NCBI GenBank assembly: GCA_012295275.1
Contig: CM022679.1
Span: 24,676,001 to 24,740,000, forward strand
DNA from: Chrysomallon squamiferum
Taxonomy: Eukaryota; Animalia; Mollusca
Direction: 5' to 3'
Length of the DNA: 64,000 nt
Shown: positions 26,590 to 61,647 of the stretch, in pieces
Position numbering within the stretch: the first letter of the stretch is position 1
Layout: each line of letters opens with the position of its first letter
Notes under the pieces: generated by a model
What the model was told of the DNA's origin: nothing
Databases searched by the model: none
The model's input: the letters and a program-made list of their open reading frames with translations, nothing else
Program-made: the position numbers and the translations under genes

Positions 26590-29500
26590 CTATTTCTTGC
26601 GACGGAAATACACATCTTTCGTCAACATGGATGTGATGCAAGGAATCTGCTTCTTTCTGTTCATCGACTCCTCGCTAGCGTTAGACTCAAACTGATAGGC
26701 CACCCTTTTGTTGACTCTTGTCATCATCGTCAGTAGATCAAGCTTGTCAGCATACTCCTTCAGAACCTCTGACAGAGCCTGGATAAACCAGGAGCCCCAA
26801 GTTGAATTGCGCCATGAAAGGTAACCTAGGAAAAAGCAAAGAAAATTGTGCTCATACTAATTTTAATGTTTCTAATGTTGACTAAAACTAAGAACTAAAG
26901 TTCCTGTGTAGAGTAAATAAAAGTTTTAATGACATCTCAACGTATTTTTATATTTCCGCTCATTGAGTGTAAATGTAATTTTGAAGTGATGTGATGAACA
27001 ACTATGGGTTACTTTTACCAGTAGCTTTCATACGCAATTTTCAGCAGATAAATGTATATGCTTCTGACAATTCAGTGGTGAATTCTAGATGGAAGCTAAG
27101 TAGCTAGATGAGCATGCTAATTAGTATTTTTCACACAGTTCTTTTACTTCTATGACAAGTAAGCCACCAGTAAGAACAACTATTGCTTTATTCTGTATTA
27201 GCTTCCTTATTTCTATCACATTACCTGGAACTACTGAGTAGGCCATCAGAAAGTCAGCCTCTGTTGGAATTCGATATGTCTCCAGCTCCATGGGTTGTAT
27301 TGCTCCTTTTGTTCCTAAAGCATCACTGACTGTGACACCATCATCCAGAGAGTGTCCTCTGCATGCCTGCATTCACAACAACAAAAAAAGATAATATAAC
27401 AGAAATACCACAGCTGTGAGATAAAAACAATACGTTAAACATGTAACTGATAAATGTTTCTTAGTAATGTATTCAATTAATAAACATCATAAATTCATTT
27501 AAAGAAAGCATTCTTTACTTATTCTGCTAAATTCCTTTATAAACTGAGTGTCCCAGACGATACCTGGGCCTAGATATAATCTAATGATGGCATGTCCATA
27601 AAAGTTTTCTGGAACTGAGAAATTTAGTTATACAGTATATTACAGTTCTTAACCTGAATAGCAGTTTATTATATGTAGTTTTACAAATAATGTAATTTCA
27701 GAGGAAAATCATTAAAAGTTTTTCTCTTTTGTTATATCAGTAGAGTCTAAATACTGAGTTACACTCCAATCTTGTCTGGTTTAAACAAGACTTGAAAACA
27801 GACTCACCTGAATGAAAAACAATTTAGGTTTTCCAGCCAGAGTTTCACAATTGTGACCTTTAAATGGTTCTACAAGGTCTTTAATCTCCACTAGCCCATC
27901 AGTGCCATATACCATCCCTTCTTCACCATGAGAGAGAATTATACAAGCAAAACAATCATTTTGTGAGTGGTCCTTTTTGCTTGCTGAAAATACATGACAT
28001 TAATAATGTTTTCATCTTGGTGAATGAAAATTTGCCTGCAGGGAATATAAGATATTACAATTCCATCTTGAAAGAGTAGACATTTGATAGATACATATAG
28101 AAGATTTTACATTTCCATCTTGAAAGAGTGAAACTGTTCATCTTGTATAAAATATATTAATAACACAAAAAAACAAAATTTTTAACACTGAACTTTAAAC
28201 ATCAGAAACTGTTAATATGGTATTTAATTTGTCTCATTAAACAGCATGTCATTAAACTCAGACTTATGACTAATCTAGGTAAGTGAAAAATTAAAAGTTC
28301 ACATTCATACACAACACTATAAATTATTTTTCAATTTATGTGCACAATATATAAAACATTTCTCTGTGCATATGTGTATACATTTATCTACTTCTGAGAG
28401 AATGAAATAATAATTAAGTCAGGAATAAAAAAAAATATATAAAAAATAAATATATAATATGCATTATCACTTAGGTAAAAAGCTGTTCAACTTACCATTC
28501 AACATCAAATCTTTCATTTTCTGCATGCTTAAATTATCATATGTTTCAACTTTAAAACTCAAAGCTCTAAAACGATTATAAATGTTTATTTTGTCTTGAT
28601 CAGTTCCTGTACGCGTTCTCATTTTGGTGTGTTTTTCAAATTCTTTGTTGTTAATTATTAGACACCATCCTCGCTCTGCATAATCCATCTTGTATTCCTC
28701 AGAAAAAAGTGTAGATTCTTTTTCCACTGGGAAATAGCCTCCTTCTGCTTGTGCATTTCCAAAGTAACTTAAAATAAATAACATTAATATATACTAATTA
28801 ATTAAATATAATCTTTATCTGGCACAAATACAATATTGGTTCAAACTTTTATATGTATGTATGTATTTTAACAACAAAAATATCCCTGGAACAGACAGAG
28901 TCATAGAACTACATTAAAACGATATTTATGTTCATCAAATGATATTTAAAGTGTTGAAAGAATTTAATTTTATGCAATCACCAAAAATTTTATAATTTTA
29001 TTTTATTAACCAAAAAACAAAAACAACTGAAGAAAGATTTAAAAGATAACTAATTACTATATCATATTACCCAGGATCCCCTGCACCACCTTTTGTTCCT
29101 AAGGCATCTGTTTCGTCAGGTTTATTACCAGTAGCTGAGGCATCTACTTGATCTAAAAAAAAAAAAATTTGGAGAAACCTGTTAATTATATTATTTCTGT
29201 ACTTTTTGTTTTCCATGCACGTGTGTAGGCATGTATGGATACTGCATGTAAAATATATTTATTTATTTTTTTTTTTTTTTTTCAAGCACAGCAGGTTTTG
29301 GAAAATGCAATGAATACGATGTAATTCTGTAATCAAATTTGAACATAGTGTAAATATTCAACAAACTGTTTATGAATCCTGACAACTATGTACTTACATT
29401 TTGTAATACATATGTAGAATGACAGGTTTATTTGCTTTAAATTTATAGTATTCTAATAATATATGTGTTTGTGCGGATAAATTGATAGACAAATGCACAT

Positions 29501-42861: not shown

Positions 42862-45800
42862 CTACTTCTTGCGACGGAAATACACATCTTTCGTCAACAT
42901 GGATGTGATGCAAGGAATCTGCTTCTTTCTGTTCATGAACTCCTTGCTAGCGTTAGACTCAAACTGATAGGCCACCCTTTTGTTGACTCTTGTCATCATC
43001 GTCAGTAGATCAAGCTTGTCAGCATACTCCTTCAGAACCTCTGACAGAGCCTGGATAAACCAGGAGCCCCGAGTTGAATTACGCCATGAAAAGTAACCTA
43101 GGAAAAAGCAAAGAAAATTGTGCTCATACTAATTTTAATGTTTCTCATGTTGACTAAAACTAAAGACTAAAATTCCAGTGTAGAGTAAATAAAAGTTTTA
43201 ATGACATCTCAACGTATTTTTATATTTCCGCTCATTGAGTGTAAATGTAATTTTGAAGTGATGTGATGAACAACTATGGGTTACTTTTACCAGTAGCTTT
43301 CATATGCAGTTTTCTGCAGATAAACGTATATGCTTCTGACAATTCAGTGGTGAATTCTAGATGGAAGCTAAGTAGCTAGATGAGCATGCTAATTAGTATT
43401 TTTCACACAATTCTTTTACTTATATGAGAAGTAAGCCACCAGTAAGAACAATTATTGGTGTATTCTTTATTAGTTTCCTTATTTCTATCACATTACCTGG
43501 TACTACTGAGTAGGCCATCAGAAAGTCAGCCTCTGTTGGAATTCGATATGTCTCCAGCTCCATGGGTTGTATTGCTCCTTTTGTTCCTAAAGCATCACTG
43601 ACTGTGACACCATCATCCAGAGATTGTCCTCTGCATGCCTGCATTCACAACAACAAAAAAAGATAATATAACAGAAATACCACAGCTGTGAGACAAAAAC
43701 AATACGTTAAACATGTAACTGATAAATGTTTGTTAGTAATGTATTCAATTAATAAACATCATAAATTCATTTAAAGAAAGCATTTTTTACTTATTCTGCT
43801 AAATTCCTTTATAAACTGAGTGTCCCAGACGATACCTGGGCCTAGATATAATCTAATGATGGCATGTCCATAAAAGTTTTCTGGAACTGAGAAATTTAGT
43901 TATACAATATATTACAGTTCTTAACCTGAATAGCAGTTTATTTATATGTAGTTTTACAAATAATGTAATTTCAGAGTAAAATCATTAAAAGTTTTTTTCT
44001 TTTGATATATCAGTAGAGTCTAAATACTGAGTTACATTCCAATCTTGTCTGGTTTAAACAAAACTTGAAAACAGACTCACTTGAATGAAAAACAATTTAG
44101 GTTTTCCAGCCAGAGATTCACACCTGTGACCTTTAAATGGTTCTACAAGGTCTTTAATCTCCACTGGCCCATCAGTGCCATATACCATCCCTTCTTCACC
44201 ATGAGAGAGAATTATACAAGCAAAGCAATCTTTTTGTGAGTGGTCCTTTTTGCTTGCTGAAAATACATGACATTAATAATGTTTTCATCTTGGTGAATGA
44301 ACATTTGCCTGCAGGGAATATAAGATATTACATTTCCATCTTGAAAGAGTGAAAATGTTCATCTTGTATAAAATATATTAATAATACAAAAAAAGAAAAT
44401 TTATAACACTGAACTTTAAACATCAAAAACTGTTAATATGGTATTTAATTTGTCTCATTAAACAGCATGTCATTAAACTCAGACTTATGACTAATCTAGG
44501 TAAGTGAAAAATTAAAAGTTCACATTCATACACAACACTATAAATTATTTTTCAATTTATGTGCACAATATATAAAACATTTATCTGTGCATATGTGTAT
44601 GCATTTATCTACTTCTGAGAGAATGAAATAATAATTAAGTCAGGAATAAAAAAAAATATATAAAAAAAAAAAGTATAATATGCATTATCACTTAGGTAAA
44701 AAGCTGTTCAACTTACCATTCAACATCAAATCTTTCATTTTCTGCATGCTTAAATTATCATATGTTTCAACTTTAAAACTCAAAGCTCTAAAACGATTAT
44801 AAATGTTTATTTTGTCTTGATCAGTTCCTGTACGCGTTCCCATATTGGTGTGTTTTTCAAATTCTTTGTTGTTAATTATTAGACACCATCCTCGCTCTGC
44901 ATAATCCATCTTGTATTCCTCAGAAAAAAGTGTAGATTCTTTTTCTACTGGGAAATAGCCTCCTGCTGCTTGTGCATTTCCAAAGTAACTTAAAATAAAT
45001 AACATTAATATATACTAATTAATTAAATATAATCTTTACCTGGCACAAATACAATATTGGTTCAAACTTTTATATGTATGTATGTATTTTAACAACAAAA
45101 ATATCCCTGGAACAGACAGAGTCATAGAACTACATTAAAATGTTATTTATGTTCATCAAATGATATTTAAAGTGTTGAAAGAATTTAATTTTATGCAATC
45201 ACCAAAAATTTTATAATTTTATTTTATTAACCAAAAAACAAAAACAACTGAAGAAAGATTTAAAAAATAACTAATTACTATGTCATATTACCCAGGATCC
45301 CCTGCACCACCTTTTGTTCCTAAGGCATCTGTTTCATCAGGTTTATTACCAGTAGCTGAGGCATCTACTTGATCTAAAAAAATAAAAAAAATTAAAAAAA
45401 TTCATGTGTGTAGGCATGTATGGATACTGCATGTAAAATATATTTATTTCTTCTTTTTTTTTTTTCAAGCACAGCAGGTTTTGGAAAATGCAATGAATAC
45501 GATGTAAATTGTAATTCTGTAATCAAATTTGAACATAGTGTAAATATTCAACAAACTGTTTATGAATCCTGACAACTATGTACTTACATTTTGTAATACA
45601 TACGTAGAATGACAGGTTTATTTGCTTTAAATTTATAGTATTCTAATAATATATGTGTTTGTGCGGATAAATAGATAGACAAATGCACATAGTTCTAATT
45701 ACCCACAAACAATAAAAGGAGGGTCATTTTAATACAGAAAATGTAGTTCAAGTTCACACGTCTGAAATCACCATTTCAATATTAAATACTTGTATCATAA

Positions 45801-47437: not shown

Positions 47438-50400
47438 ATGGATGATTTAGTCATTGGAGATGGTAAGTTTAAATATATCAGATAATTAAAATTGAATATA
47501 AATAACATTCATTACTAATCACATTTAAATTAAGATGTAATTATGTTCCACTGCATTAAACCGTTCTTAATAAAGATTCCTTGCCTACTTCCGTGTAGTA
47601 TCTAAGTATGTGATAATATGGATTATTCATTTCAGTTAGCAGTAAAACATCTTTTAGATGCAACGTGCCATAGACAGGAAAGAAACAGACTTTGATAAAC
47701 TTTTCATATGGCAAAGACTGAAATAGTAGTTTAACCAGTTCTTTGAAATCTCAGGTTTTGCATACAGTCAACATAGTTTGATAAATTCTGACCAAGCATT
47801 TCTCTGAAATACACTGTTACAGGTTTGCATTCTGATAATAATCCATTTGGTGATTAATCCAATTAAATGATTAATTGACGAGAAGGTTATGTTTTATTAG
47901 TCTTGTAAACTTATTTAATAATTTTGATTTGATACTAGGTTGTAATATCAGGACTTAGTACAGTTATTTTAACAAACAATTACTTAGCAGTGTTCCATGA
48001 AAGCTGAGGAAATTCAGAGTGAGTGACTAAACATTTGCTGGAGGTTATTTCTATGGAAGAAATATTAAATATTGTTTGTGATTTAACATTCTAAATATTT
48101 CATTCAAAAAGTGTATTTAATCAAGATCTGATATTTGATACCGTGAAGACTGACCAACAAAGGTTAATTCATAACGAAAAACGGATTTTTATGGACAAAA
48201 TTTGTGGAATGATAAAAAATTCTTACAATACAAATACTTTGCTTTTACTAAATAATAATAATGTTGTTGTTATTATTAAGAATCATCTTAAAAGGTTATA
48301 AATTCTGAAACAATTGTTTTTTTCTTTTTTAGAAAAAGATTCTGTTAATAAAAAACTGAAAGCTGCATGGCATCATGTATCCAGGTAAACTTAATCAGCT
48401 CAGTATCAACACACACAGAATTATATGTAAATCTAAGCATTGTGTTGACAGTATAAAACCAAATATATTTTTCTGGATTAATATAATTTAAAAAATAATA
48501 ATCATAAATCCACCCTAATGATCTATGTAGTCTTATGTATAAAATTTTACAAATATTTTTACCACTGTTACAGATTCTTCTCTGGTACTTAACTAAGTAA
48601 GTCTAAGTAGCTACCATATCATTACAAAAAATTTAATAATGTTTTCTCCATTATTAAAAATATTTTGCCAGCTAAAACTAAATAAAATTTTCATGAAATA
48701 ACTATGCTGTACAGTAAATACAATTTTTATACTTTTTTGTTTACCTATTTTACAGGCCCTTTGGAGACACCAAAGATCTTCCACTTGTTTATGATGATCA
48801 TGATGAATATAACTTTAGCCATCCATCTCGTGGTACTGCCATTATTATTAATAACAAGACATTCCAGGATAAATTACCAAGGGAAGGTGCTGATGTAGAT
48901 GCAAATAATCTTCAGCAAGTTTTTAGTCATTTTGGATTTTCTGGATATAAGATATTTTGAAGATTTAACAGCTGTTGGAATTATCAGTATTTTCCAGAAA
49001 AGTAAGCCTGCATCATTATTATTCTGTTCCTTTTGCCTCCATATTATTATATTCCTTCTGTATTATTCTATTTCTCTTTATATATTTAAATTAAGTACCT
49101 GAAATTATTCAGAGCCATTCTGGTTTTTAAAATTTATTTTGTAATATTTTTTACCTGGAATTTTTTTTGACCCCTGATTCCATTTGTCCCACTTTTGTTT
49201 TTTTTGTTTTTAATGGCTTCCATTTTATTAAGGCACTCAAGAGTCTAATAAATGAGCAAAAATGTGTTGACACCATTTCTATATTATAGCAGTCTTGTTT
49301 CAGCTAATAAAAATATAGCTGTTTAATTATGTATATTTTTACAAATGCACATAAATCTTTTTCATTACAGTCTCAAAGGAAAACTACAAGAATTCAGATT
49401 GTTTTGTTTGTGCAGTTTCTTCTCATGGTGATGAATATTTTTTTGATCCTGACAAAAGGAATTCAAAGAGAAGAGAAGAGTTTATTTTAGGAACAGACCT
49501 CAGACCAGTTTTGACTTGTAATATTCTTGAAATGTTTAATGACAAAAACTGCCCCTCACTCAGAGGAAAACCAAGAATATTTTTCATGCAGGTATGCAAA
49601 ATATCTTAATTTTAGGACGAACATAATGATAAATGTAATCAAACATGTAAAAGTTTTAATTAATATTACATGGAGAAGACAGATTTTATGTCTGTATATA
49701 TATTTACACACACACGTGTACATACATACATATAATAAGTAGTAGTTAATATTAAACTGAAAAATAAACACTTTGTGAGAACGGGGGAAACTTCTTTACA
49801 AATTTAAAATCATTGTTTAATATTTATGAGTAATTCTGAATTGGGAAAATGATTTTTACCAATAAACTTTAAAATATTTTAAAATTGGCAGTTTAATTTG
49901 ATATTGTTTGAAACTGTTCGGGAAAAATATAAATTTTGATATTAAATTAATTGGACATAAATCATGTTTCTTAACAGCTCTATCCTCTTATCCTGTATGT
50001 TAAATGTGTTTTTTATATCATATATGAATATAAAAAGTAGAAAAAGAAGAAAGAAAAAGTGAAAATCTAGAATGCATTATCATCAGACAGATATATTCAC
50101 TTTTAGGCATGTCGTGGTCAGGGTATTGACAGTGGCGTAGATATTCTAAATATACATGATGAGGTGGATGGTTGCAGATCTACAGATCCTTATGTCACAT
50201 GTCCATCACCATTGTTTAAAGACTTCCTTATTGTCTATTCAACACCACCAGGTTTGTTTTTAACAAATATAATTTTTTTTAATTAGTTAAGCCAAATATC
50301 TGGATTAATATAAATTTCTGTATGTTGCCACTGAATGATAATGTGTAAGAGTAACATGAAAATAAATGGAATTCATTCCTCTTCTGAGCATTATAATTTT

Positions 50401-50764
50401 GTTAAAAAAAAAAAAAAAAAAAGAAATTTATCAGTTTTCATTACTAAATGGCTAGAAAATATATAATAGTTGTTACTCAAACTTATGATGCACCTTTTAA
50501 ATTTACCTTCTGGTTTTTTAAGGGTTTGCTTCATTTCGAAGACCAGACAAAGGTTCATGGTTCGTTAGTGCATTAGCTGAATGTGTTAAGAATTGCAGAG
50601 TAGAATCTGTGTCCCTCCTGAAGCTACTGACTAAGGTAATTCATAATGTGTCATTGAATTTCCAGTCAACCTCTGTCACTGATCCCAGTCTTCATGGCAA
50701 GAAACAGGCTCCTTGTATTTGCTCTATGCTTACCAAGGATGTTTATTTCAGAACAAAGAAATGA
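47438..50764 (+). CDS. Divergent short-prodomain caspase (~309 aa if one frameshift is corrected); gene or recent pseudogene
   Basis: Exons 47438-47462, 48333-48384, 48756-49001, 49371-49591, 50107-50251, 50523-50764. EYNFSHPSRGTAIIINN, SSHGDE, GKPRIFFMQ|[35 protein letters not shown]. One extra base near 48937-48940 gives TGA at 48958-48960. Confidence 0.88.
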
Positions 50765-54283: not shown

Positions 54284-57200
54284 TTAAACACATTGCGTCA
54301 TCACTTTTTCTTTCTTTCGAAAATAAACATCTTTTGTCAACATGGAATAGACACATGGCATCTGTTTTTTCATGTGCCGACTGGGATTTCTCAAACTCAC
54401 TGACTCGAATCCTATAGCAACCTGCTGTATCACTCTTGTCAGGAGTTTCTGGAACTCCAGTCGAGTGATGTCACAGTTGTTAATGACGTTGTACAAATTC
54501 CTTATGAATACAGATCCACTTCGAGGTTGACGCACCGAGGCATAGCCTAAAAAAATATATAATAATAATAATAATGACATAAATTTAAAATATAAATTAT
54601 TGTTACTGTTGTTGTTGTTGTTATTATTAGGGAATTTGCACTTAAAATAACACCATCAATAAATAAGCTGCGGTTCTATGACTCATTTGAGAAGAGCATC
54701 ATGAGGTTGACATTGAGGTATGTTCTGGTCTTGATTCAGTTTCCAGTTATTGATCCGTTTAATATAGAGAATGCACATTTTCGCCGAAGATGACCGAGCA
54801 CGGTGAAATGTTCCGATGATACAGAGTACATCAACGTGCTCAGTTTTGTTTTCTCAGTGACGAAGAAATTAGAATTGGAAATTAATAGAGCAACAACGAA
54901 GAAAAAAAAGACGGGGAAAAAGTCGTATATTAAGATGATGCATAAAATTATTCACGATTATTTTTGACGTATTGTTGTCTACGGCCATACCACGTTGATG
55001 ATGGTATGAAAATTTTATTCACGATTATTTTTCGACGCCTATCCCGGATCCGATCTCTGGGATCGCCAGGGATGGGTTCCGGGACACATACCACGTTGAA
55101 AGCACCGGTTCTCGTCCGATCACCAAAGTTAAGCAACGTAGGGCTCGGTTAGTACTTGGATGGGTGACCGCCTGGGAACACCGAGTGCTGTAGACATTTC
55201 ATTTTGCTCTTTTTTTCTTTCTTTTTTTGATAATTATTGTTATTATTATTATCGAATCTTTCAAAATATTTTCTGTTAATTATATTAGATTGAGATAAAT
55301 GTTCTAATTTATTGAGACTGCTGTTAGAAACAATTGAGGACAAATATTAATCATATGAGATGTGCACATCCGGAAGGGAAATAAAAAGAAATAATAAATA
55401 GGGATAATACTGCGGAGCTAACGCATTAGCGAACATGACGAAATAAAACACCATAATTCTAATTTTCTTTTGCAGCTAGCATTCCGACAGAGAAAACATT
55501 AGCTTGCAATGAAAATAACTGTTTTACTTGTCGATTTATTTCGAAAGGATTAAATGGAAATCTCAGAGCATAAAGGAAAATAACAATAATAACTGATAAA
55601 AAGGTAAGGTTCAGCTGTATTGTCTAGGCTGCTGACCAGTGCCTATTCTCGGATGCGATCCCACTACTACTCGACACGGAGACTTTTGCCTGCTGCGTTT
55701 CCGCCCTGGGCCATTACGTCCCTCCTTAGACAACCTGGTTTCTCTCGCCTCCGCGAGTTAAACCATATCGATGCCGAGCTCAGTGCGGACATCCAATCAA
55801 CACAGAGCACCAGAGAGCAGAACCCCCGAACTCAAGCTGTCCACAGACCTATGCTTCCAAGTAGCTGGATTACAGGAGCTCGCCACAACTCCCGGCGATT
55901 TTTATTAATTTATGTCCGGCGATCCGGAATATTTATTTATTTGTTTGTTTGTTTATTAATTTATCGATTTATCGATTTATTTATTTATTTCATAATGATT
56001 ATAAAGCAGTTGTAACTGGAAGAAATAACAATGGCAAGCTATTAACAGATGCGATGTTTACTAAATTATTTTCAGTGATGCGTAATATTTATGCTTGCTC
56101 TAGAGCTTCTTATTATTAACTGTTATCATTATTATTATTACATCGTTAAGAAATACAGAAATGCAGTCGGATTTACAAGTAATTTTTCGTCTATTTCGTC
56201 CTCTTTGTGCACCACAGTTCTGCGCTCTCACTGTCTCCATATTTTCCTAACAGTATATAGTAGTATTAGTAACTGTGATGTTAATATGGTATGTTCCCAA
56301 AACTGGCAATCTCCAAAGCAGGTAAGCGGTGAGGTGTTCTAATCAGCTTCCACATATGGGGAAACTGGCGTGAGCAATTAAGGCCAATTTAGGCGCATGG
56401 GACCTTATGTGTGAAGAACAGATGGGGCGATTAACCTTAAAGAGCAATGAAGAGCAAAGGTAAGCCGGAATAGAGATTGCAAGAAAAATAATGTTTGGAG
56501 ACATGAAATTAATGTTATATCTCAGTAAAATTTGGAGACAGGAAATACTACCAGAAGACAAGCACAAGCTCTTCCTGCTGGGATTGGAGTACGTCACGTA
56601 TACCCGGGACACGGCTTCCTACTTGTCAGCTTGCGGTGGAGTGCTTTCTGGGACATTTCGTGTGTAAAGTGTGTCTGAATGTGCTTTCAGATTGTGGACA
56701 AAATACTGTTTAACAAAAGTACATCAGTTAAGGTGATGGGCCATCAATTAAGGTGACGGAACACCAGTTAGTAAGGGTGAGCAATAAACTGTCAGAAATA
56801 GGACATCTGGCGTGTCCAATTAAGATGTGTTATAATCTCACTGCCGGATTCGGGAATGCCAGAATCGGGAATAAACCGTTAATATTAGCAATTAAGTATA
56901 ATACTGCAGAGCTAGAGCATTAGCGAACACGACAATATAAAACACCATAACTGTATTTTAGTTTACTTATTTATTTGTTTGTTTATTAATTTATTGATTA
57001 TTTATTTATTTATTTATTTATTTCTAATGATTATAAGGAATTTATTTCAGGAAGACGCCACAATTGCAAGCTATTAACCGATGCGATGTTTACTAAATTA
57101 TGTTCAGTGATGCGTAATATTTATGCTTGCTCTAGAGCTTCTTATTATTACTATTATTATTATTATTATTACATCGTTAAGAAATACAGAAATACAGTCG

Positions 57201-58008
57201 GATTTAGAAATAATTTGTCGTCTATTTCGTCCTCTTTGTGCACCACAGTTCTGCGCTCTCACTGTCTCCATATTTTCCTAAGTGTATCTAGCAGTGGTAG
57301 TAATTGTGATGTTAGTATCAACAGTTGAGATTAAACATAAAAGTAACAGCAGCAGTACTTGAATAAATTACCGTTATGTTCGGGTTTGCTAACTGTTGTT
57401 TCTGTTGATTACGTCATTCCTTGTTGTTAATTAGATCAGCTAATTGACTGGCATTTGAGTACTGCCTGATTTATGTACGATGTGTATGTAATTGACATGG
57501 CATTGAGTATTAGTGCGTGTCATAATTACTAGGAATATAAGGTAGGCGCTTCGGTTTCTTCCACATTCAGTTTTGATTTGAATTTACAGAAAGTCATTAG
57601 AAAACTATGGAGAAATTCAGTCTGTACGCTGCACTCTACGAAACAGAGAATCGCTTCAGACGAGCCTGCGACCAGATTGTCATGCTGAACAGCAAGCTGG
57701 AAGACCTGCAACTCCGATACGACAAAGCCAGAGTGGACAACCACAAATCGTTCCGATACAACTTGCGCCTGAAAATGGCCACTGTTGAGGGTGTGCGTAA
57801 TTCCTACTACGAATACGCCTGCTGGAAAGCAGAAACGGTGGCCGAACTGAGGATGCGATTGTCAATCGTTTCGCCCGAATCAGAATCCGATAACGAATAT
57901 ATGCAGTAAAGTGAGCCGAAAGCACCTAATTATGCCTTTGAAACGGTGGCTCTTTTAAGAGCCGTGCAAATCACGTGAAAGTGATTGCACACAGTTGCCA
58001 TATTTCTT

Positions 58009-58092
<84 letters not shown>

Positions 58093-60724: not shown

Positions 60725-60778
<54 letters not shown>

Positions 60779-61647
60779 TTTAATAATAGTAACAGTGGAA
60801 TTCCCAAACACGTCAACAGCAATAACGTACGGGAACAACAACGTCTTCGAAACACTAAGGGCCGTTACCGTATTCAGTGACAATGAAATGAGATAACGTC
60901 ACTGTTTGTGGCGTGCACTCAGTGCATAAGAGAGGGCAGTGGATTATTGATACATGTATAAATAAGTGCGATTTTATCACGAGAAGAATAACACGGAGTT
61001 GACGTGGAGGTATGTTCTGGTCTTGATACAGTTTTCGATTGCTGATCTGCTTAATATCTAGAGATTATATATTTTTGATATGGACTACCAAGCTCGTTGA
61101 AATATAAAAATAATTTCTTTATTTGAATGTAATTAGAACTGAATTCAATAAAAACTAACAATGAAAATAGTAGTAACAAGCAATAATGTGTTTTACTGTC
61201 ACTTACATAAAAAGTATGCATATACCCCATTCTTTTTATTTTTCATCGAGTGTTGTATACACTTATTTTGTTTGGAGTCGGAGTTGGGGGGTTCTTTAGT
61301 TGTTAATGATTATTATTTTTATTCTTATTTGAAAGAAATGTCCTGGAGGTTTAAAATTCTGATTTCATTTGTGAAGTATATTAGTGCCTGTTTAATGTCA
61401 AATTAGTTAATGAAATGGTTCGAAATTTAACAGAAATAATTATAATCATTTACAGGTTATCTGTTGTAATGAATACTATTTGATTCAATTTTAAACATAA
61501 TGAAATGCATGGAATTAAGACACGAATGAAAACGTCGTAATTATAAAAAAAAAAAAAATTACTTAGGACATACAGACACATTAAATTCTGCACGTACTTT
61601 ATAAATAGTGTTTTTTTTTTCAGTGTTATAGCAGAATTAATATATGT

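Follow-up and report, generated by a model that had tools for sequence, protein, structure and literature searches.

A 5S–7SL RNA repeat in a caspase intron of Chrysomallon squamiferum carries a non-histone protein gene with a predicted histone-type 3' end

Why does the last intron of a caspase gene in Chrysomallon squamiferum harbor repeated copies of two small RNA genes and a protein gene, and what kind of message would this protein gene produce? The window analyzed here comprises 64,000 nt of contig CM022679.1 (assembly GCA_012295275.1), and all coordinates refer to it. The host gene is located on the minus strand. Its last coding exon (54284–54546), identified by tblastn to three paralogues, is separated from the penultimate exon, which encodes the QACRG motif (61694–61840; left end exact, right end approximate), by an intron of 7,147 nt (54547–61693). 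The GT..AG borders of this intron are intact, and joining the exons across it yields an open caspase frame, indicating that the host gene is intact. Without the insert, the intron would have a size of approximately 730 nt, and the equivalent last introns of the three other caspases in the window measure 399, 399, and 271 nt. Both the location of the repeat within a 7.1-kb last intron and the size of 0.3–0.4 kb for the orthologous introns had been proposed in a preliminary description of this region and were borne out.

The insert contains two copies each of 5S, 7SL, and a short open reading frame, ORF100, arranged as two units plus about 115 nt; the unit period is 2,696 nt according to self-comparison of the window. 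Self-BLAST and repeat analysis delimit a damaged and rearranged unit 1 (54660–58261), a complete 2.7-kb unit 2 (58262–60957), which is also covered by contigs and head-to-tail joints (see below), and ~115 nt from the start of a third unit (60958–61075), which form the right end of the insert. Unit 1 is interrupted by an unrelated piece of 600 nt (56288–56889) that has no second copy in the window and yielded only sub-threshold zinc-finger matches in a Pfam search, and by a 70-nt fragment of the 5S–7SL spacer together with a 357-nt duplication of the segment upstream of 7SL (56890–57318). Segment by segment, the copies in the window diverge by 1–16%. Thus, the previously proposed ~2.7-kb unit with 5S (+), convergent 7SL (−), and ORF100 (+) holds with respect to its three genes and its period, but not as a clean tandem run. 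Similarly, the copy described as clean (58264–60959) is a complete unit but differs from the contig majority at many sites, including positions 59187 and 59280 in 7SL, where copy 1 corresponds to the majority. The spacers contained no hidden RNAs according to Rfam (E≤10) and no tRNA genes, no match to U7 was obtained in 54500–61800, and three spacer stretches folded no better than shuffled sequences.

The proposed check with the Rfam 5S and SRP models identified both RNA genes in either unit with scores above the gathering score. 5S copy B (58586–58704, plus strand; RF00001, 115.7 bits) is of full length and followed by a T-rich run. 5S copy A (54977–55196, plus strand) is split at its 5' end: the first 22 nt (54977–54998) are separated from the remainder (55087–55196) by an 88-nt insertion (54999–55086) flanked by a 13-nt duplication. 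The Rfam match covers 55075–55196 (87.1 bits), and the remainder is 97.3% identical to copy B. Both 7SL genes are on the minus strand and of full length (RF00017). Copy A (55599–55896, 255.7 bits) has a 13-nt deletion immediately upstream, and copy B (59107–59404, 245.1 bits), convergent with 5S, differs from the contig majority at four listed sites. A truncated second 7SL start at 59595–59680 (minus strand), overlooked in the preliminary description, was recognized by sequence alignment with the beginning of 7SL and its upstream flank; it comprises about 35 nt of the 5' end, starting near 59628, and the region upstream, and has no stable fold. A SINE derived from 7SL or 5S, which would be expected to display a partial RNA-derived head, an A-rich or simple-repeat tail, a target-site duplication, and no genomic upstream flank, was not supported, as the RNAs of unit 2 are of full length with shared upstream and downstream flanks.

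ORF100 occurs in two intact, intronless copies on the plus strand (57607–57909 and 60163–60465) that are 97.7% identical. The region upstream of copy 2 (60060–60162) contains a TATA-like box (60092–60096) and is a putative promoter; the upstream motifs are also present at another locus, L001. The corresponding protein family is unnamed, is found in molluscs and annelids, and forms 763 clusters at 50% identity. It is under purifying selection, with dN/dS values of 0.075 (window versus L001) and 0.049 (L002 versus L004), and in all eight gene copies examined at the DNA level the ORF is continuous, lacking an intron. Structure modeling and family data predict an antiparallel helical hairpin (H2–44, H47–88) with a basic turn region and an acidic tail; Arg, Tyr, and Phe residues near the turn are conserved. 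No match to the family was obtained in Pfam, NCBIfam assigned no function to the protein, the best match among PDB sequences was to generic coiled coils (E of 0.016), and the ESM Atlas yielded only an unnamed cluster of 51 members, mostly molluscan. Foldseek comparison of the model with PDB and viral structures gave no match with E≤0.001. Accordingly, neither a histone fold nor an H1 domain was identified by Pfam, PDB-sequence, or fold searches.

Behind each copy of ORF100, a histone-type stem-loop of the 6-4-6 type (57948–57963 and 60504–60519) is followed by CA at +4/+5 and a GAAAG element (57977–57981 and 60533–60537), so that the complete signals span 57948–57981 and 60504–60537 on the plus strand. 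The stem-loop pattern occurs twice in the 64 kb, both times 38 nt past an ORF100 stop, while 200 shuffles produced none. The same geometry of stem-loop, CA, and GAAAG was found behind the homologue in six out of six other loci. Here, L006–L008 and L011–L024 represent a single contig and were counted once, and L004 and L005, being near-identical, do not provide independent evidence. Two of five loci (L009 and L010) were dropped as short chance bacterial matches. In all eight aligned gene copies (the two in the window, L001–L005, and L007), the stem-loop is positioned 31–39 nt past the stop, with CA at +4/+5 and GAAAG 13–14 nt behind the stem. RF00032 matched in five of five metagenome loci and, in L006/L007, downstream of each ORF copy. 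In G001, a record of 11.9 Mb in which neither histone genes nor SRP RNA were found, the pattern occurred seven times, once behind each of seven ORF copies, and the reversed control gave none. Neither the stem-loop nor the downstream element had been noted in the preliminary description.

The protein sequences display a corresponding signature. In 19 of 359 homologues, spread over several clades of the tree, the tail reads through a peptide that a stem-loop could encode (mean of 0.18 and maximum of 1 in 50 shuffles), a count to be read with the reservation that the peptide pattern was set after some tails had been seen and that its matches are not independent. In head and core residues the pattern matched twice in 34,517. 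Among the read-through tails, 15 of the 17 testable ones fit RAAAG 10–17 nt later, compared to a background of 0.108.

These signals might nevertheless be a relic or have another role, e.g., as a terminator or stability element, in an otherwise real array whose ORF100 messages are ordinary polyadenylated mRNAs. In favor of this explanation, no RF00032 match reaches the gathering score of 34 (16.8 bits in the window, 21.5–29.3 elsewhere), and a conserved C-A mismatch occurs at pair 4 in five of the eight aligned stems. In five of eight copies, an AATAAA or ATTAAA hexamer follows the stop at a distance of up to 400 nt, which leaves room for polyadenylation. The eight stems displayed no compensatory change at any pair, the folding z-scores are modest (−2.0 and −1.5), and the flanks of the window stem-loops depart from the usual histone flanks. 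In addition, SLBP CLIP in human cells recovered histone mRNAs only (PMC4604434). However, the spacing of stem, CA, and GAAAG is retained although synonymous sites are saturated between genes, the genes are intronless and arrayed, and L007 has ACCCA following the stem, with CAAGAAAGA downstream of it. We regard ordinary polyadenylation as unlikely.

A histone-type 3' end might also be borrowed by a selfish or virus-derived passenger that hides in high-copy arrays and whose protein serves the element instead of the host. The family diversity, far above that of histones, the occurrence in different arrays and at dispersed sites, and the absence of a known relative would fit such an origin. Conversely, viral contigs gave no match in any of five scans (three protein and two pattern scans, covering close relatives only), no viral fold matched with E≤0.001, and no viral homologue emerged. 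The insert has no terminal repeats, no target-site duplication, and no enzyme gene such as a transposase or integrase, nor a capsid gene. The longest word shared as a candidate target-site duplication was an AT-rich stretch of 7 nt and was rejected. The few long homologues of ORF100 are tandem-fusion or neighbor-fusion gene models. The earlier suggestion of a mobile or virus-derived unit was thus not supported, and a selfish passenger appears quite unlikely.

To which genes ORF100 is linked differs between arrays. In another animal, the homologue is part of a 2.14-kb U1-ORF-5S array (a contig of seven units, 99.3–99.8% alike), which has only 5S and the ORF in common with the unit in the window, and in L004 and L005 the ORF is located in a 1.52-kb terminal repeat without RNA genes. 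This indicates that 7SL is exchangeable and that the protein gene occupies the slot of the histone genes in known 5S arrays. In Mya arenaria, gene models consist of up to 10 near-identical copies of the domain. Units that combine histone genes with 5S and snRNAs are known (PMC5011920, PMC8382920), and 5S linkages have been gained and lost repeatedly (PMC6204057). The preliminary description suggested co-amplification of two translation-machinery RNAs with a small protein. As an alternative, 5S, 7SL, and ORF100 might form a functional module for translation and secretion capacity, amplified jointly on account of a role of the protein at the ribosome or SRP. In sequencing run X2, contig depth is indeed alike over 7SL, spacers, and ORF100, the remnant of a second 7SL start suggests that 7SL is not a recent addition to the unit, and the protein model weakly resembles tRNA-binding arms, below the bar for naming. 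In contrast, the depth of 5S in X2 is ~16 times that of the rest of the unit, suggesting that most 5S genes are located elsewhere, and the exchange of U1 for 7SL, or the lack of any RNA gene, in other arrays weakens a functional link further. Such a module is therefore very improbable.

Do the intron copies stem from a larger array? Contigs of two sequencing studies span nearly the whole unit at high depth (29 and 28 of 30 bins), and head-to-tail joints were identified in both (60979 to 58303 in X2 and 60920 to 58303 in X1, which may be the source sample). At dozens of positions, the contig majority carries other letters than the window copy. In X2, one contig that matches the window copy exactly shows a depth of 5.7 compared to a median of ~486, depth being a hint and not a copy number. 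High depth and joints in two studies suggest that the intron copies are an orphon of a larger, head-to-tail 5S array. The contigs listed leave two links unbridged, between 5S and the spacer and between the region upstream of 7SL and the promoter of the ORF. As depth is almost nil over 59497–59781, the majority unit may have a different structure in this part. Of the words of the unit, a share of 0.25 is present in RNA run X7 and of 0.17 in X9, which is uninformative as to which gene is expressed. The description as an undescribed multigene repeat is supported by these contigs and joints, and no published account of a 5S + 7SL unit was found in the literature; a 2013 survey of animal 5S linkages to other RNAs may already list 5S-SRP. 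Mis-assembly or a one-off juxtaposition of three unrelated repeats is scarcely credible. Divergence of 1–16% per segment between the copies would not result from sequence collapsed or duplicated during assembly, X1 and X2 both contain a 204-nt stretch that matches the window copy exactly, and contigs of two studies share the same order and joints.

We conclude that the intron insert is probably a decaying orphon of a larger 5S + 7SL + ORF100 array, and that the ORF100 message is predicted to be cut behind its stem-loop by SLBP/U7 and not polyadenylated. This reading builds directly on the three genes, their repetition, the intact intron, the stem-loop, CA, and GAAAG that the window shares with six other loci, the evidence of purifying selection, and the arrays with other partners. 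The array would spread and homogenize by unequal exchange, and ectopic repair may have introduced a copy of one piece into the intron without a transposase, its location in a caspase gene being an accident of dispersal. Pol III would transcribe 5S and 7SL, and Pol II ORF100, from a separate promoter for each gene, so that the linkage amounts to co-amplification of genes wanted in many copies, with exchangeable partners. The presence of a protein gene in such an array is best explained by its histone-type 3' end: a histone-type hairpin and downstream signal on an array-borne gene suggest that a non-histone protein is amplified and processed in histone fashion. SLBP would bind the hairpin and U7 pair with GAAAG, and cleavage after CA would result in an S-phase-coupled or egg-stored message. 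The weakest step, which we consider doubtful, is that the hairpin protein, produced in bulk together with histones, binds nucleic acids or chromatin.

On balance, we lean slightly towards a sixth 'histone-class' gene in molluscs and annelids, i.e., a non-histone helical-hairpin family with SLBP/U7-made messages that is tandemly arrayed, replaces histone genes in 5S arrays (with 7SL here and U1 elsewhere), provides a bulk chromatin or nucleic-acid binder of dividing cells or eggs, and has largely been missed by poly(A)-selected transcriptomes. Replication-dependent histone mRNAs are described as the only cellular messages with a stem-loop end in place of a poly(A) tail (PMC4604434, PMC1924863). 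If true, a large invertebrate family would be a second client of the histone 3'-end pathway. Independently of the RNA motif, the gene is organized like histone genes, in tandem units with 5S in two lineages and with different partners. As one more labile 5S linkage, the 5S + 7SL unit carries modest weight.

The term orphon denotes copies of tandem histone or rDNA families that are dispersed in the genome. Like these, the insert is a short, rearranged, and diverged run away from the main array that ends within a unit and lacks terminal repeats; it differs by residing inside an intron of an intact protein gene and by retaining two intact ORFs. At the protein level, ESCRT-III/PspA, the LSD1 tower, and the SerRS arm also consist of two long antiparallel helices (TM 0.7–0.8 over ~85 residues), but with 10–18% identity and no match with E≤0.001 this is a likeness of shape only. 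With regard to linkage, razor shells reportedly possess 5S linked to U1. The units described in PMC5011920, PMC8382920, and PMC6204057 comprise histone, 5S, U1, U2, and tRNA-Arg genes in Hydractinia, 45S, 5S, and core histone genes in Potamopyrgus, 5S and histone genes in Mytilus, and 5S and U2 in oyster. Like the unit in the window, these are arranged head-to-tail, mix Pol III and Pol II genes, and have labile partners, whereas the unit here has 7SL as the partner and a non-histone protein gene. Hydractinia also has arrays of SRP RNA and of 5S, which the part of PMC11067881 at hand does not place in one unit. Metazoan replication-dependent histone genes, defined by the RF00032 stem-loop, HDE, SLBP, and the U7 snRNP, are unlike ORF100 in fold and sequence; the ORF100 family is far more divergent, its stem-loops score under the Rfam cut-off, and its processing is predicted. 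Both are nevertheless short, intronless, and multicopy, and share a 16-nt stem-loop soon after the stop, a cleavage position 4–5 nt behind it, and a purine-rich downstream element (PMC10730174, PMC5011920).

Rfam searches of the whole 64-kb window gave four above-cut-off matches, every one within the last intron of a caspase: full-length 7SL genes at 55599-55896 (copy A) and 59107-59404 (copy B), both on the minus strand, and 5S matches on the plus strand at 55075-55196 (copy A) and 58586-58704 (copy B). Two 100-codon ORF100 frames lie on the plus strand at 57607-57909 (copy 1) and 60163-60465 (copy 2). The tandem 5S/7SL/ORF100 repeat of the preliminary description was therefore recovered with all its genes in duplicate, but self-comparison revealed that unit 1 (54660-58261) is damaged and that unit 2 (58262-60957) is followed by only ~115 nt of a third unit. 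The host caspase is encoded on the minus strand, and its last intron (54547-61693; 7,147 nt, GT..AG) separates exons that join in frame, the splicing signals being left intact by the intron copy. As initially estimated (~0.3-0.4 kb), the equivalent intron is far shorter in the three other caspases of the window, at 399, 399, and 271 nt. The location of the unit in this intron is incidental. Two members of the four-caspase cluster, 26593-28703 and 42865-44924 (both minus), are near-identical, ~16.3 kb apart, with introns of equal size, and probably represent a recent segmental duplication; the third is located at 48802-50761 (plus).

Copy-to-copy identity ranges by segment from 84% to 99%, with 7SL, ORF100, and 5S the most alike. 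In unit 1, an insertion of 88 nt, bordered by a 13-nt duplication, interrupts 5S copy A (54977-55196). The insertion partly repeats the 5S upstream flank, which suggests an origin by repair or template switching. Upstream of the unit 1 7SL, 13 nt are absent, and before ORF100 come 600 nt of unrelated sequence, part of a spacer, and a duplication of 357 nt. One short frame in the 600-nt piece (56288-56889) resembles a RING-like CxxC motif, but weakly (E 0.1, below cut-off). A leftward-pointing 18-nt motif at 58262-58279 and 60958-60975 is 89% alike to the sequence immediately upstream of 7SL; it gave no Rfam match and no significant fold, and may mark where a third small-RNA gene was lost or has gone unrecognised.

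ORF100 is a genuine gene with a wide distribution: we found 39 close relatives, part of them in clusters of 35-135 members, and 763 relatives when representatives at 50% identity were searched. No taxon is given for most members, and the named ones come from molluscs and annelids. Together with the resemblance of the window 5S to that of L007, a locus on a 15-kb contig described below, these relatives make a molluscan source of the window probable. Named relatives from Mya arenaria, Magallana gigas, Littorina saxatilis, Patella caerulea, Lamellibrachia satsuma, and Capitella teleta are annotated as hypothetical or with uninformative names, and none of the protein-family, sequence, or fold libraries searched gives ORF100 a name. 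One member, MEW8107392.1, is annotated within a Ca. Thiodiazotropha bin. Using Nei-Gojobori counts, which are saturated for deeper pairs, dN/dS was 0.075 between the window ORF100 and metagenome locus L001 and 0.049 between loci L002 and L004; the value for the two window copies (0.14) derives from only 7 changes. AlphaFold predicts that two helices form a hairpin (pLDDT 91) and that the acidic tail is disordered, and residues C21, Q23, R37, Y38, A41, R50, Y51, R54, E61, and G62 are conserved at a level of at least 90%.

The preliminary description had overlooked the histone-type 3' end of this gene. Each window copy is followed by 38 nt, a perfect 6-4-6 hairpin, and five bases ending in CA, with GAAAG 13 nt behind the stem. 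This pattern occurs nowhere else in the 64-kb window and in 0 of 200 shuffles. Matches to RF00032, the Rfam histone 3' stem-loop, were located behind the homologue in 5/5 metagenome loci and behind each ORF copy of an animal-type contig, 15 kb long, that lies in a bacterial bin; the 11.9-Mb record of that bin contains the pattern seven times, one per ORF copy (7 copies), with 0 in the reversed control. We also considered homologues whose predicted frame continues beyond the usual stop. A hairpin-compatible tail peptide, a pattern defined after examples had been seen, was present in 19 of 359 homologues (shuffles: mean 0.18, maximum 1) spread over several clades, and the downstream element fits in 15 of 17 testable read-through tails compared to a background of 0.108. 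Every DNA-level test of a histone-type 3' end that was run gave a positive result.

We propose that ORF100 most likely acts as a histone-class gene, intronless, amplified, and processed by SLBP and U7, the pathway described in PMC10730174. Such a gene would be expected to sit where histone genes sit, and ORF100 would occupy their typical setting: units with 5S and small RNA genes, as described in PMC5011920, PMC8382920, and PMC6204057. Alternatively, the hairpin could be a relic. All RF00032 scores are below the Rfam cut-off, five of eight stems (metagenome loci L002-L005 and L007, a copy on the 15-kb contig) carry a C-A mismatch at pair 4, with no compensatory change among the eight aligned copies, and an AATAAA-type hexamer lies within 400 nt in 5/8 copies; stems of the window clade are perfectly paired. 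However, hairpin, CA, and GAAAG are identically spaced in 8/8 copies despite saturated synonymous sites between both clades, and we regard a relic as unlikely. The mismatch may tune or weaken SLBP binding. The weakest step of the histone-class proposal concerns the protein, which could, tentatively, be a bulk nucleic-acid- or chromatin-binding factor in dividing cells or eggs, a role in keeping with the gene class and with a protein that has a basic aromatic turn and an acidic tail.

That ORF100 is a selfish passenger is quite unlikely, as self-comparison revealed neither terminal repeats nor a target-site duplication at the insert ends. The intron copy is most likely a by-product of dispersal. 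The 15-kb contig repeats a 2.14-kb unit of U1(+), ORF(+), and 5S(-) in tandem; its units are 99.3-99.8% alike and have only 5S and the ORF in common with the window unit. This animal array (CBDHDT010000127.1) lies inside a bacterial bin, i.e. is host contamination. Terminal overlaps of L004 and L005 imply a 1.52-kb unit devoid of Rfam RNA genes. The Mya arenaria models MAR_017187 (P0360), MAR_017188 (P0361), and MAR_017287 (P0269) comprise 10, 5, and 2 near-identical domain copies, most likely adjacent array genes fused by the predictor. As homologues are arrayed with U1 and 5S or without an RNA gene, 7SL is evidently not a fixed partner of the family, which argues against a translation module of 5S, 7SL, and ORF100. 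We consider such a module very improbable, and the same arrays do not support co-amplification of two translation-machinery RNAs with a protein, the earlier suggestion, as a functional module.

Parts of the unit were present in 15 of 17 listed sequencing runs (maximum share of unit words 0.45). Beyond the intron, where the preliminary description had proposed to look, contigs from DNA runs of two studies covered 29/30 and 28/30 bins of 58262-61100. They joined the unit end back to its start, at 60979->58303 in X2 (short side 183 letters) and 60920->58303 in X1, a run that may be the source sample. At dozens of sites, the majority letter departs from that of the window copy. In X2, a contig identical to the window across 60511-60714 had a depth of 5.7 compared to a median of ~486 elsewhere in the unit, and 5S depth was ~16x higher again, depths that do not equal copy numbers. 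The listed contigs span upstream spacer to 5S, spacer to 7SL, and promoter to ORF100; none of them connects 5S with the spacer, or the region upstream of 7SL with the ORF100 promoter, and depth is nearly zero at 59497-59781. Behind the start of each 7SL gene, the remnant of another 7SL start is preserved along with the region upstream of it (59595-59680, 55990-56090, and 57040-57125; minus); contig depth there is very low, and the majority array may lack this remnant or differ in it. Our reading of these contigs, which do not fix the exact majority unit, is that a high-copy array exists and that the intron holds a diverged stray piece of it. An artefactual intron insert is extremely improbable.

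In the literature searched, largely outside subscription journals, we found neither a 5S + 7SL unit, in agreement with the initial view of an undescribed multigene repeat, nor a non-histone family with histone-type ends. The unit is a real feature and a new variation among 5S-linked multigene arrays, with which it shares 5S, its novelty being the combination with 7SL and ORF100. The weight of the locus lies in the protein gene: ORF100 resembles histone genes in the DNA features of its 3' end, whereas its product does not belong to the histone family.
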